64,000 nt of DNA from a virus (IMGVR_UViG_3300021438_000010:34622-98621), one strand, 5' to 3'. Positions 54,866-62,841 are shown, counted from the stretch's first letter. The notes: generated from the sequence alone by a model not told the origin. Numbers and translations are program-made.

Positions 54866-55303
54866 TTAATTAAGGTGATACAATGGTCAGGTTGCCGGTG
54901 TCGCCATTAAAGTGTGTGAAATAACTCTGGCTAATATACTTACCTTCAATACCATCTACCATTCGCTTGCTATATACATTGACACGCCAGCGATTATCGT
55001 ATACATTCATACTCTTACAGAAGATATAGTCTGAGGGCTTCTCTACATGATTAAAAATAACATCGCAAGGCGTAATGCCATAATGATCAACCTTCTTCAC
55101 TGGAACATCATCAATCATCTTATTAACCTTTGCCATAAATGCCTCCTAAAAGTAAATGTCGCTGACTGTATTGCAATATGTTGAACCGTTTATATGGGGA
55201 AGTACAACCCCATTTGTGCAACTTATATAAACGCTATATATTATTCATTTTGTGCATCTTACCAAAGACACACTACCCCATTGTACCATATCGACACACT
55301 CGA

Positions 55304-55435
55304 CGCAAGTACTTGAGGAATAAGGACTTACGTTCACTCACCATTAGACTTGACGTAAGTACTTGAAAATAAAAGACTTATAGATTGCGGCCCCGGCCCC
55401 GCCCATCGTAAACCCTTGCTGCTAAAGGACTTACG
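55304..55435. repeat. double-dyad element A (three 29-bp dyads at 55304, 55354, 55407)
   Basis: Consensus CGTAAGTCCTT-N7-AAGGACTTACG; GCGGCCCCGGCCCCG linker. Confidence 0.85.
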
Positions 55436-55778
55436 ACGAGTCAGGAATTTTTAGAGAGAATCGAAATAGGCTTTCGCCTTCTTCATCTCACCTTGAATAC
55501 CTTGGTGAACAGGCGTATCTCTATTTACCTTTTCATATTCTTCAATGATAGGTGGCTCGTAGTCGCACGTTCTAAATCCTGCATTTTCTTCTAGGTAGTC
55601 CATATCGACTTCACCCAAAAGTTCGTGGAGTTCGTCAGGGTCTTTTGCCTCAACTACAAAAGAGGCTTTCTTTGCCTCGACATAGTTCATCGTTACTTTA
55701 TACTTTGGCATAATATTACCTTTCTATTTAGCGAGAGCGGGGAAGGGGGTTTCCCCCCAACCCCAACCCTCCCACTAA

Positions 55779-56984
55779 CTAAGCGGTCAGAGCGAAAACC
55801 TTTTCGTAATCCTTATCTGTAAAGGTATCAGCACGACGCAGGATCGTAGCCCAGCGGTCTGCGGAAGTGTTCAGCAGACTGCCAGCGATCTCGTCAAACT
55901 TCACCCAAGTCTTATTATCAAACACCTGTCCCGCACGGGTCAGACCGTTGATAATACCGAACAGGTTACGCTCACCAGATTCCAAAGTAACATATTGATC
56001 AAGAAACTCGCTAGCCTCACGCTTGGTCAGTTTATAATCCGACGATACCGCAGCCACGATACCCTTGATGCTAGCCTTGCCAGTATCCATCGCACGGGTA
56101 GCGAGGAAAGTCTTGATACCGGGAGCAAGCAAAGGAATCTGATGCTGGATATTCTTGGCGATTTCCAGTTTCAGAACGTCAAGGTCGATATTGCCACGGT
56201 GAACGCGACGAATCTTCTCACCAGCAGTCTGACCCCAGATGCACCCGTTCATGCAGATGGCACGAAACAGGCTAGGAGTCTGGCTAATCCGGCGAGTACC
56301 AATCTCGCAGTTACCAACGCTAATCATTCCACCGTAGTCGCTATCATCAGCACCGTAGTCCATGATAGTATCGGGGATAAGGATATTACCATAGATAGTA
56401 TCCTCATCGCCACGCCAGTGACTGAAACGACCACCGGGAACAAACTCCGCGAGGGTTTCCAGATACCAACGATTATCAACAGGAGCATACTTGTCGGTCA
56501 CGAACGCACGGCAAGTACCATCAGTGTAGGTACGAAGTCGGAACGTCTTATCACCGTCGATTCGACGCAGAGCATTGTTACCAACGATAGCCATAGTGTT
56601 AGCATCGTGAGTATCAAAGCCTTCAATATTACGCATCTCACGCAGGAACGACGAGGAAGTAACTTCCGTTCGCACACTGAACTGCTCAATAGCATGATCG
56701 GTAGGACGAAACTTGCGACCGTCGCCCAACTTGATAAAGAAATCGTTGTCCTCGCTCACGCAAGAAATGTTCTTAGCCTCAACGAGAATATCCTCACGAT
56801 TCTGAACAGCGATCTGAGCATCTTCCATGACCTGTTCGTAGGTCTTGGTCTTAGCCCACCAATCCTTATGAACGTGCGTACCCTTCTCAAAACCAGTGCC
56901 AGTAGCACCCTCAAGGGTGCGAACAAAGTCACCTTCGCTCTTGTTACTCTTGATCGTCAACTTGTTATAGTCAGTCATTATCAT
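55779..56984 (-). CDS. DUF932-like protein
   Basis: RAFVTDKYAPVDN, ISVGNCEIG, FRAICMNG, RRVHRG; promoter at 57016-57043. Confidence 0.7.
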   Translation of the reverse strand: MIMTDYNKLTIKSNKSEGDFVRTLEGATGTGFEKGTHVHKDWWAKTKTYEQVMEDAQIAVQNREDILVEAKNISCVSEDNDFFIKLGDGRKFRPTDHAIEQFSVRTEVTSSSFLREMRNIEGFDTHDANTMAIVGNNALRRIDGDKTFRLRTYTDGTCRAFVTDKYAPVDNRWYLETLAEFVPGGRFSHWRGDEDTIYGNILIPDTIMDYGADDSDYGGMISVGNCEIGTRRISQTPSLFRAICMNGCIWGQTAGEKIRRVHRGNIDLDVLKLEIAKNIQHQIPLLAPGIKTFLATRAMDTGKASIKGIVAAVSSDYKLTKREASEFLDQYVTLESGERNLFGIINGLTRAGQVFDNKTWVKFDEIAGSLLNTSADRWATILRRADTFTDKDYEKVFALTA

Positions 56985-57276
56985 TCTCCTAAGTAGTGGG
57001 TTATCAACTCTTCGTATTATACAGGATCACTCGTCGTTGTCAAGGTCTGGCGGAAACATTTCATCGAAACATTCCCCACAAGTGCCTGACAATAGAAGTT
57101 CACGTTCGTTTGCGGAAAGGTAGGGCAATGCGCTCTGAATAGGGAGCGAACCACTCAACCAATCGTACATATCACTCTTATTGAGCGTCAAAACAAACTG
57201 ACGCCCACAGTGCTTGCAGAAAGCATCGCACAAAGTATCGTAAACCGCAGCAACCATAACTGTCTCCTTTTCAACC

Positions 57277-57304
57277 ATCATACCCTATATATCGGGCATG
57301 TCAA
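57277..57304 (-). promoter_or_regulatory. sigma70-like promoter downstream of element B
   Basis: TTGACA-16-TATGAT. Confidence 0.8.
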
Positions 57305-57332
57305 GGGGTCAGCATTAGTTTTTTCTTTTTGT

Positions 57333-60407: not shown

Positions 60408-60715
60408 CCAGCGGAATCTTTTACGCCCCGATTCCTATAACCCATACGATTGTCCCTTGTCAGGATCGGATGGAAACCGCCCACGGAAACCTCCCTAGAA
60501 TCGGCATTGCTAGCACATAGACCGATTCATCTGGCTCTTAGTGACGGTTACTGGTTGTATGGCTCATGGTGAGGATGCAATCCCCCATAGATTGGTATCA
60601 CTATACAGCATATAACCTTGCTGTCAACCCCGGCGATGATGTACGTCTTCGCTGAACGGGAGGTTTATCGTGATAGGTTATCCAATCTAGTCCCTCTGCA
60701 TGGACCCACGGATGT
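60408..60715 (-). ncRNA. candidate structured non-coding RNA
   Basis: No credible ORF, elevated GC, several complementary segments, directly downstream of promoter 60736-60763. Confidence 0.45.
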
Positions 60716-60791
60716 TTGTTTTGTATTACTCCCTTATTGTACACTCTATTATCGTCCTGTCAACCCCTAATCCTTAAAAAATATTTTTCTT

Positions 60792-60873
60792 CGTAAGTTG
60801 TTTGGTGGTAAGGGTTTAGAGCTAGCGGGGCGGGGGATATCCTCCCTAAGTTGTTATTTTCAAAGGATTTAGG
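60792..60873. repeat. double-dyad element D (dyads at 60792, 60845; linker inverted)
   Basis: CGTAAGTTGTT-TGGTGGT-AAGGGTTTAGA / GCGGGGCGGGGG linker / CCTAAGTTGTT-ATTTTCA-AAGGATTTAGG. Confidence 0.82.
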
Positions 60874-61252
60874 ATACCTTGCCTACATTCATCATAGAAT
60901 ACCCCCTTGGGAGTAAGGTATAGAGTATCAAATGCAAAACCGTCTATATTTCTTCCTGTATTAGTATGCCAGTAAGGGAGTTTCCTAGGGTCATATATTA
61001 GGTGGGTACACCAAGAGGGAATCTCTCCCTTGAAGTTATGAATCACACCCTTGCACTTTACCCACGAACAAACATCCTTATTAGCTCCCATATAAATCTT
61101 GTCTGCCACATTACGGTTATTGTGGAGAACACAGTTGTGGAGACTAAAAATACCCTCACTAGGATGAACGTACCACACTTCCTTGGTTTTAGTATCTTTG
61201 AACTGCCAGTGTTTGTAGTGCTTACCTTCTTGAAGATGATAGCGTACCTTGA

Positions 61253-61744
61253 TCATGCTTCTTCCTCCATCATCTCAAAGAACTCGTCCATACCATACTC
61301 ATTCCACAATGCTACAGGAATGATATCACGCTTATCGTCAATACTACCATATTCAATATAGTTGTCAATACCATTATCCCAAATACCACAATAGGCCATT
61401 CCCGGCTCAAAGTATGTAGCACGTACATTATAATCCAACTCTACCAGTTTTTCGTATAACTGAATAGGAGGCGACCATGCGGTATTGAATGATACCACAA
61501 CCTTACCATCTTCAATCTTAGCAGGATCGCAGTATTCGTCCCTGCCAAAGTCCCACTTGGTTCCCCAGTTATTGCAACACCAGTTATACCAACGCGGATT
61601 TGGTCCATCGTCTTCATAATATCCTTCTGGAACTGGCAAGTAATGCTCACACGTATTACCTGAGTTATATGCGTCAACAAACTCTTGCAACTTAGCAGGA
61701 TCGCTATGGGAAATATACAGATTATTCATGCACCAGTTAGGCAT
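61253..61744 (-). CDS. DUF1281/Api92-like ferredoxin-fold protein
   Basis: MPNWC.N, WYNW..NWGTKWD, FNTAWSPP, YFEPG. Confidence 0.75.
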   Translation of the reverse strand: MPNWCMNNLYISHSDPAKLQEFVDAYNSGNTCEHYLPVPEGYYEDDGPNPRWYNWCCNNWGTKWDFGRDEYCDPAKIEDGKVVVSFNTAWSPPIQLYEKLVELDYNVRATYFEPGMAYCGIWDNGIDNYIEYGSIDDKRDIIPVALWNEYGMDEFFEMMEEEA

Positions 61745-62759
61745 TAGATGTCTCTTTCTTCAACGATGTTAGAGGAACCACAGTCCATACATTGACAGTT
61801 ATCATATGGGCCACCAATGATGTTACCATCTTGATCTACCCATGCGTCGTAACCTATACGATTACTCTCGCACTGTTCACATATCATACTCATTAGTCAA
61901 CCTCCAAAATCTTTTCTAGTCGTTTGGTCAACTTTGCAACTTCTTTCATAGTAAACGGATATTTATGTCCATTATTCTTACCATGCTCAATATCTAGTTC
62001 ATAACTATCTAACGCATGTAGAATAAGAACTATATCCTCTTTATCAAGATTACATTTCATACATCGTACTCCTTACGCCAGTTACGTTCATTGGCTTTAC
62101 GGGTACGGAGTCGTTTGGGACGATTATCGAACACCGTATCCCGATGCTCTTGGTGTCCCTGCCGTATTTCCCACGGCATAACTTTCTTGACCTTGACCAC
62201 GTTGCGGCGTGGACGCATATCTTCGTTGTTGTGGAGCGTAATCATACCATATTCCGTTTTCGTGTTGATAGTAAACTTTGTCAGTATTAGGGTCGTAAGC
62301 CATCAGACAGTATTGTATAGGATAGTTCGTTTTTGTCAAGACCTCGTTTTTAGTTATTTGAGGGATTTTGATATTTCCATTCTGAATGTCCTTGAGTCCT
62401 GTATACACCAATCCACAAATCGTGATAATCACGCCAATCCACTGAATCATGATGCCTGTCTCCTTTTTCATATAAGGATTATCGGCATACGGCTCAGAAA
62501 ACTTTAGGTTGGCTGACTACCCCTGCGAAAATGATCGGGCTTGTTAGGCAAAGACAACCTTATATTCCGCAGTCTTTTCAACCCATACATTTTGCCCATA
62601 TTCTTCACGGGCCTTACAGTACGCTTCAAACTGGCTAGGGGATGTCACATATCCCGCAAACCGATTATTCTTCCAAACTCTCCAAATATACATGTTCTCT
62701 CTCCTATATACGTACTCTACCATAACTATCGGCTCTGTCAATACCTTTTCTTTAGTGGT

Positions 62760-62841
62760 TCTAAGTCTATATTTGATAAGGGTTTAGGTCAAATCTCCCC
62801 GGCCCCGCTCACCATAAGTCCTTTGGTGGCAAGGGTTTGCG
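62760..62841. repeat. double-dyad element E (dyads at 62760, 62813)
   Basis: TCTAAGTCTAT-ATTTGAT-AAGGGTTTAGG / CCCCGGCCCCG linker / CATAAGTCCTT-TGGTGGC-AAGGGTTTGCG. Confidence 0.85.

Follow-up and report, generated by a model that had tools for sequence, protein, structure and literature searches.

Phased double palindromes upstream of predicted early promoters in an uncultured phage and its relatives

Double-palindrome elements were characterized in a 64,000-nt stretch of DNA from an uncultured lake phage of ~166 kb (IMGVR_UViG_3300021438_000010:34622-98621, here called the window), where five copies lie between co-directional genes and predicted sigma70-type promoters. The elements have a fixed anatomy, a polarity, wide conservation, a helical phasing to the promoter, and no conserved pairing. 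They constitute a real and conserved polar regulatory module.

The window comprises bases 34622-98621 of a linear IMG/VR viral record of 98,621 bp, with a CheckV completeness estimate of ~65%. The record has 34.6% GC content, and almost all of its genes are on the minus strand. It encodes a split DnaE-type polymerase, DnaB, a primase, a RecA-like protein, ribonucleotide reductase, rIIA, several tRNAs, and a tmRNA. Public runs containing the stretch are freshwater/aquatic metagenomes, and no RNA runs are listed among them. No DNA match to the region or to the cassette was found among GenBank phages, which gave solely distant protein matches (<33% identity) and no close cultured relative. The elements sit in a higher-GC block at the contig's right end (window 54000-64000; 40–46% GC vs 31–38% in the remaining record), which contains many small open reading frames (ORFs) without known function and strong minus-strand sigma70-type promoters. 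A complete relative, G008, is 166.6 kb in length with terminal repeats, encodes a DnaE that is 88% identical, carries dyads identical to those of elements A and C, and is in effect the complete version of the window's phage. Its element array spans 142.1–159.2 kb, so the array in the window probably runs on past the contig end.

The five elements, A to E, occupy window 55304-62841 on the minus strand, and each pairs two 25–29-bp dyads, spaced by exactly 53 bp, with a GC-rich linker in between. Dyad starts are 55354/55407, 57333/57386, 59333/59386, 60792/60845, and 62760/62813, with an extra third dyad in element A. Spacings from element to element are 1979, 2000, 1459, and 1968 bp. The order on the coding strand is gene end, dyad 1, linker, dyad 2, UP-like A/T tract, TTGACA, a ~17-bp spacer, and TATAAT or a close variant. 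The gap to the −35 box in elements B–E is 28, 29, 28, and 18 bp, or 30, 31, 30, and 20 bp from the 25-bp core, the last being one helical turn shorter than in B–D.

Elements were scored with a position weight matrix (PWM) built from promoter-oriented copies. Element A (minus-strand PWM match, score 60) has its promoter-distal dyad, dyad 1 in the direction of transcription, at 55407..55435, a GC linker at 55383-55406, and its second dyad at 55354..55382. The third dyad lies 50 bp further on (55304..55332) and overlaps by 5 bp the −35 hexamer TTGCGT (55303-55308) of promoter A, whose −10 box is TACAAT (55280-55285). A triple-dyad arrangement is also found in relatives L036, L099, and L024, and the overlap with the −35 box is common to the first two. 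Element B (57333..57414, score 98) has dyads at 57386-57414 and 57333-57361 with a G-rich linker, and its distal dyad contains the stop codon of the upstream gene (57395-57640). Its sigma70-type promoter (TTGACA...TATGAT) and A/T-rich UP-like tract are at 57277..57332. Element C (59333..59414, score 106) has dyads at 59386-59414 and 59333-59361, a linker that is a small GC palindrome (CGGGGC-CA-GCCCCG), and a consensus promoter (TTGACA...TATAAT) with the UP-like tract AAAAATTTTTTT at 59276..59332. Elements D and E are degenerate copies. Element D (60792..60873, score 64) has a C-rich linker on the sense strand and is followed by promoter D (TTGACA...TACAAT) and its UP-like tract at 60736..60791. 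Element E (62760..62841, score 81) has dyads at 62813-62841 and 62760-62788; the gene upstream (62842-63081) stops at the element edge, and promoter E (TTGACA...TAGAGT) is at 62714..62759. The spacers within the promoters at 57277-57304, 59276-59303, 60736-60763, and 62714-62741, and within those of relatives, have a common GCCGATA(A/T)T-like motif with TG directly before the −10 box, which may be an additional recognition element.

A strict 29-bp consensus with ≤3 mismatches matched three dyads, compared with none in 100 shuffles. The relaxed 25-bp pattern TAARNYCTT-N7-AAGGRYTTA with ≤2 mismatches recovered all 11 dyads, at record positions 89927-97460 only, and a reversed-pattern control gave zero matches over the whole 98,621-bp record. 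A repeat search recovered the elements as a 90-nt family. An earlier note on this DNA had listed the five two-dyad elements, their GC-rich linkers in an AT-rich genome, their recurrence every ~1.5–2 kb, the −35 gaps of B–E, and the third dyad over the −35 box of element A. All of these were reproduced, and every dyad coordinate was correct.

The elements belong to a large family. A single-dyad pattern search returned at least 119 IMG/VR loci. Among the loci listed, the spacing of neighboring dyads is 53 bp 95 times and 52 bp 28 times, other short spacings being rare; conservation of the 53-bp spacing in relatives, set beforehand as the test of a phased site, was thereby confirmed. The PWM search gave 174 element copies in 47 loci. 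A strong −35/−10 pair lies downstream in 132 of the 167 copies with flanks, and the median promoter score is 12.9 bits downstream vs 6.1 bits for an inverted upstream control. In nine near-complete relatives (G001, G002, G004, G006, G008, G009, G011, G012, and G015; 122–233 kb, mostly 94–100% complete), the copies form one 15–20-kb co-oriented array that takes up ~8–10% of the genome. Copies point with transcription in 7/7 cases in G008, 8/8 in G012, 15/16 in G002, 14/15 in G004, and 12/13 in G015.

Operators within the elements have the form TAAGTCCTT-N7-AAGGACTTA. The element is polar, and each of its four half-sites has its own consensus. Inner half-sites, beside the linker, are the strongest and nearest to TAAGTCCTT, and the outer ones differ in fixed ways (left TAAACCCTT, right AACGACTTA). 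Near-invariant positions across the 167 copies are the outer TAA/TTA and the inner CTT/AAG. Similarity between copies is 0.64 within a genome vs 0.59 between genomes. Copies within a genome are thus barely more alike than copies between genomes, which indicates that the arms are kept by position-specific selection and not by recent copying. The inner conserved blocks, CCTT and AAGG, are ~11 bp apart from center to center, the usual spacing for a helix-turn-helix (HTH) dimer in adjacent major grooves. No papers were found that describe such phased dyads, and the motif strings match only primers and oligonucleotides there; no description of the family was found in papers or GenBank phages.

Distance to the promoter is quantized. 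Gap lengths between dyad 2 and the predicted −35 box cluster at 20, 30/31, 41, 52/53, and 61/62 bp, which places the center of dyad 2 near −68, −78, −89, −100, or −110. Rayleigh R for periods of 10.5–11 bp is 0.42–0.46 in 95 de-duplicated copies and 0.56–0.59 for the 86 best promoters, and none of 5000 jittered nulls reached the observed value. Several gap classes are mixed in 18 of 31 loci. For these predicted promoters, the steps in the distance to the core promoter equal one helical turn, as in a helically phased operator.

Base pairing within the dyads is not conserved. The commonest central-stem "pairs" in the 167 copies are A.C (82/167) and C.A (68/167) in dyad 1 and C.C (81/167) in dyad 2, and no compensatory changes were found at stem positions in these copies. 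Sense-RNA folds of dyad 2 fall short of −4 kcal/mol in 47% of copies, and those of the dyads in elements D and E give 0 to −3.3 kcal/mol, although both elements keep the half-site pattern. A U-tract is absent after the dyads, where the sequence is A-rich instead. A terminator scan listed no dyad, the G+C-rich paired stem with U-tract of an intrinsic terminator being absent, and no Rfam family matched the elements. Unconserved pairing, weak RNA folding, the quantized −35 distance, and position-specific selection together favor an element that is read on double-stranded DNA.

The reading we prefer, at a probability of about 0.55, is that each element is a double operator for a putative sequence-specific protein acting on early sigma70 promoters, with a secondary role in genetic exchange like that of promoter-early stem-loops (PeSLs). 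Each element would be a polar ~82-bp double-stranded DNA site with two near-palindromic operators on either side of a GC-rich linker that is itself approximately palindromic; their centers, 53 bp or ~5 helical turns apart, would place the operators on the same helix face. It would stand after the end of one early gene block, with the UP-like tract and near-consensus promoter downstream. A dimeric sequence-specific protein would occupy each dyad, and the two dimers would form one complex, suitably oriented on the helix to touch either RNA polymerase or the UP-element region. One factor could in this way switch the whole early array together. The suggestion in the earlier note of phased nucleoprotein sites for early transcription is backed by the conserved spacing, the ~10.5–11-bp promoter period, and the conservation of sequence rather than pairing. 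Protein binding at the dyads and the direction of regulation are what we infer from this pattern. For direction, we lean to shut-off or insulation over activation, since the third dyad of element A covers the −35 box, a position expected of a repressor. The other copies, upstream and in phase, would fit activation or phi29 p4-like repression alike.

Known upstream regulator sites offer a parallel. CRP class I sites, Fis sites at rrn P1, TyrR boxes, and phi29 p4 sites are likewise palindromic, lie at whole-turn distances above the UP or −35 region, and may be paired an integral number of turns apart. An upstream site of phi29 p4 can repress or activate a strong phage promoter. The dyad sequence differs from all of these, and dyad 2 centers are not at CRP positions. 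The IHF-site form, WATCAANNNNTTR with a free N4 and an upstream A/T tract, was not found: WAT is unconserved and the N4 (GGAC/CGAC) is conserved. The resemblance of each half-site to an IHF core, also proposed earlier, is therefore weak, holding for CAA-N4-TTA and failing for WAT and the free N4.

Several observations weigh against a double operator. The promoters and their timing are predictions, and the gap classes could derive partly from the descent of a few ancestral cassette types. An element stands upstream of only 5 of the ~12 strong minus-strand promoters within 52–64 kb, and the close relative L036 lacks element D in full and retains promoter D; the element is thus not required for promoter function. 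Mild symmetric covariation at the linker center (z = 3.5–4.5 at pairs 37/42 and 38/41) could reflect a small GC hairpin or merely a constrained GC palindrome, and would fit such a hairpin better than direct protein readout. The search for a binding protein adds to these points. Pfam scans of 100 small ORFs of the window and, in G008, of 86 ORFs from the early region and its flanks gave no HTH, ribbon-helix-helix, or HU-type regulator.

A phylogenetic profile compared 50 gene clusters common to five complete element-bearing genomes with two element-free relatives. Three of the 50 were missing from the latter: a 174-aa Sigma70_r2-like protein, a 262-aa protein with an HTH-like N-terminus (phrog_323), and an ERCC4 nuclease. 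This trio is at the head of the divergent late arm; in each of the six positive genomes it lies 0.5–4 kb from the first element. In every complete relative it heads the arm that diverges from the early array, a region that lies past the end of the window contig. At L369:6698-7994 (G008 139698-140994) and L369:4014-4514, the Sigma70_r2-like gene overlaps the 262-aa gene, and the ERCC4-type nuclease is nearby. The N-terminus of the 262-aa protein resembles sigma region 4/HTH, and the two proteins may form a two-piece phage sigma factor. The HTH protein has no match among GenBank phages.

One of the element-free relatives, G013, has its own array of a different double palindrome, in which CTGCCATTTTGGCAG occurs twice, 29 bp apart, with eight repeats before similar promoters. 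This sister family, CTGCCA-N3-TGGCAG with a GC-rich linker, comprises 156 pairs at 29 bp in 40 loci; examples are L334:10651-19494 (G013 200.6–209.5 kb), L402, L405, L411, L425, L435, and L471. The half-sites resemble las/lux-box and NtrC-type sites, with a different spacing. CTGCCA-type arrays stand at the same place before early promoters and beside the same gene trio (70–78% identity). Both palindrome types occur together in a few loci (L068 and L025).

The trio was rejected as specific binders of the dyads, given its presence beside CTGCCA-type arrays. Its apparent specificity was an artefact: the "negative" G013 contig ends exactly at the trio junction, and the other element-free relative, G014, is a shorter copy of the same phage. 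On the HTH-protein tree, moreover, the two array types are intermixed. A binder encoded in the array was likewise not supported, as the most widely shared early proteins are present in both array types and the early families specific to the TAAGTCCTT-type arrays (12:0 and 11:0) are restricted to one subclade. No protein family universally separating the two array types was found, and none of the searched phage proteins emerged as a binding protein for the dyads. Possible candidates for the dyad reader are a host protein and a phage protein that evolves fast.

Bacterial genomes were scanned with the perfect dyad, which gave >120 matches. Nearly all are unrelated T-tailed, terminator-like hairpins after tRNA or other genes in spirochaetes, planctomycetes, and other bacteria, and a host-factor regulon was rejected. 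The perfect palindrome TAAGTCCTT-N7-AAGGACTTA with a T-run stands directly after tRNA genes at L127, L142, L163, L178, L201, and many further bacterial loci, and Calothrix sp. PCC 7716 has a repeated copy family of it. A true double element was seen in a few contigs of metagenome-assembled genomes only (L153, L180, and perhaps L205), which probably represent phage DNA binned in error. The scan pointed to no host and no host regulon.

The two array types share the trio and early genes and are intermixed on the flanking-gene (HTH-protein) tree, from which it follows that palindrome type turns over faster than the flanking genes. A speculative extension, which we consider doubtful, is that the double palindromes are operators of a global early regulator and that their type acts as an immunity specificity in a lytic phage. 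If so, the shut-off that a resident phage imposes on its early promoters would extend to any superinfecting phage with a matching operator type, a phage that changed its operator type would escape this exclusion, and large virulent phages would have a heteroimmunity like that of lambda. Relatives (e.g., L402:3020-3160 and 9239-9390, L028, L041, and L050) carry a sigma54-like motif, TGGCAC-N5-TTGCA, in either orientation and often as two inverted copies; in long-gap cassettes it separates the palindromes from the sigma70 promoter. No sigma54-like TGGCAY-N5-TTGC was found in the window.

Among other explanations for the double palindromes, the best surviving is that they and the promoter are a mobile cassette like PeSLs, serving mainly as portable homology patches through which early genes are gained, lost, or swapped by general recombination; a dedicated binding protein would then be unnecessary. 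PeSLs are found in T4-type phages (Arbiol et al. 2010, PMC2839356; Comeau et al. 2014, PMC4122927). As with PeSLs, repeated cassettes occupy intergenic sites of a hyperplastic early region rich in small ORFans, a dyad or stem-loop is followed by an AT-rich tract and then by a near-consensus sigma70 promoter, and the cassettes are concentrated in one region with indels and replacements between close relatives. The same layout and the same link to indels are published for PeSLs (PMC4122927). Compared with L036 and L099 (82–88% identity), single genes are gained or lost beside elements A, B, and C and below promoter B. Indels abutting an element edge include an 86-aa gene (55447-55729), an extra ~530-bp gene (57411/57438), and a replaced block from 59413, and an 84-aa gene (57009-57270) starts just below promoter B. 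Contigs of related strains from another study show two clean joints, 57415>57579 (1 bp from the distal edge of B) and 60781>61775 (10 bp from the proximal edge of D). By our own count, 7 of 9 indels are at a cassette edge vs ~45% expected (rough p ~0.05). Among 675 high-scoring segment pair ends in loci with elements of the window's type, 18.4% fall in or ≤15 bp from a cassette, compared with 10.0% for ORF boundaries and 7.9% for random positions. Module order is altered in more distant relatives (e.g., L009 and L119), and the intermixing of the two palindrome types on the flanking-gene tree also fits exchange of cassettes.

Homology alone, however, requires no palindromes, rigid 53-bp spacing, −35 phasing, or conservation of particular positions beside free spacers. 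Homogenization among the copies of one genome is slight, ~80% of homology breakpoints are elsewhere, and the observed indels are single-gene events without an element copy, unlike the PeSL minicircle model. A PeSL is a single simple G/C- or A/G-rich terminator-type hairpin, whereas the elements here have two sequence-specific 25–29-bp dyads with a 53-bp period and a GC linker, unconserved pairing, no U-tract, and a helically phased −35 box; the paired terminator-type hairpin is lacking. The window phage, with a split DnaE polymerase and no close cultured relative, is also not a classical T4-type phage. The PeSL precedent raised in the earlier note therefore stands for promoter layout and the link to indels and falls for the hairpin. 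Its companion idea of cassette shuffling is retained as a moderate enrichment of indels and breakpoints at cassettes, with a PeSL-like role possible, and is dropped in its site-specific form. Cassettes are favored as boundaries of change; the effect is modest and most breakpoints are elsewhere. As the main function such an exchange role is rather unlikely; as a passive role in modular exchange it is possible, and it is compatible with the double operator.

Less probable still is a signal at the RNA level, in which the dyads in the upstream-gene transcript fold as a terminator, a 3′-end protection, or an RNase III-type processing site resembling those of T7 early genes. Position is in keeping with this: a co-directional upstream ORF ends −150 to +110 from the element in 140 of 160 copies, often inside the first dyad. 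Sense RNA of elements A–C folds at −7.5 to −10.8 kcal/mol per dyad, element C as a whole can form a long irregular hairpin (−30 kcal/mol), the linker center shows the mild covariation given above, and the identical perfect palindrome with a T-tail is a terminator-like hairpin after bacterial tRNA genes. Across the family, though, the central stem is mostly non-pairing without compensation, about half of the copies have an unstable dyad 2, D and E hardly fold, and the U-tract is lacking. Outer arms anti-covary (z = −3.8 and −3.4), contrary to a long hairpin, and an RNA function leaves the fixed 53-bp spacing and the −35 phasing unexplained.

A selfish miniature element of the MITE (miniature inverted-repeat transposable element), Correia, or BIME (bacterial interspersed mosaic element) kind, inserted between genes and tolerated upstream of promoters, is very unlikely. 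The structure resembles terminal inverted repeats, element D is present in the window and missing in L036, and some genomes, such as G004, have many copies with identical spacers. Element D nevertheless has no target-site duplication and no clean empty site, copies are restricted in one orientation to the single array, the promoter link is fixed and phased, and no transposase was seen in the Pfam scans of the 100 and 86 small ORFs. In enterobacterial chromosomes, BIMEs or RIPs (repetitive IHF-binding palindromes) consist of two repetitive extragenic palindromes around a linker, and some are bound by IHF or gyrase. They share with the present elements the palindrome-linker-palindrome plan, the location between co-directional genes, and the many repeats; they differ in being chromosomal, largely RNA 3′ structures of variable orientation that are not coupled to promoters, whereas pairing is not kept here.

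Site-specific recombination, the other proposal of the earlier note, in which 11-7-11 cores would let a tyrosine recombinase of the phage or a XerCD-like one of the host excise, invert, or integrate cassettes, is not supported and is the least credible of all: the inverted 11-bp arms around a 7-bp spacer do fall within the plan of such core sites (arms of 11–13 bp, spacer of 6–8 bp), like dif and cer (11-6-11 and 11-8-11) and lox/FRT cores, and elements bound gene modules, but the 7-bp spacers are 11 different sequences among 11 dyads and offer no shared overlap region for strand exchange, array copies are co-oriented with no inversions seen, strain breakpoints are at element edges and not in spacers, and, as already noted for the window, no tyrosine recombinase (PF00589) was found in the 98,621-bp record, nor any tyrosine or serine recombinase (PF00589 and PF00239) in five 98–100% complete element-bearing genomes, control genomes having scored positive, a host enzyme being possible.

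Other features of the region include a full-length tmRNA gene (window 36048-36402, minus strand; 109.6 bits vs Rfam RF00023) that was not reported by ARAGORN, and a tRNA-Ile(TAT) gene (57965-58041, minus strand) inside the early array between elements B and C. An ORF-poor segment of ~340 bp (60400-60740) has strong promoters of its own (60627 and 60763) and is kept at 70–79% identity in many otherwise divergent relatives (L009, L017, L032, L036, L094, L100, and L119). It is a candidate phage small RNA, with no Rfam family match. The late region of G008 (110743-113910) contains three members of a further, distinct family of small palindromes, with TACTAGTAC-like arms and an 8–10-bp spacer.

The double palindromes are a sharply defined, widely conserved control module, with >170 copies, rigid geometry, and promoter phasing, in large uncultured virulent phages for which almost nothing is known of early-gene timing. 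Close relatives carry different double palindromes at the same place, which suggests that the specificity of early control turns over quickly. Possible consequences are for competition between phages and for the plugging of new early genes into a ready-made regulon. The PeSL idea, that regulatory cassettes double as exchange points, would also extend beyond classical T4-type phages.

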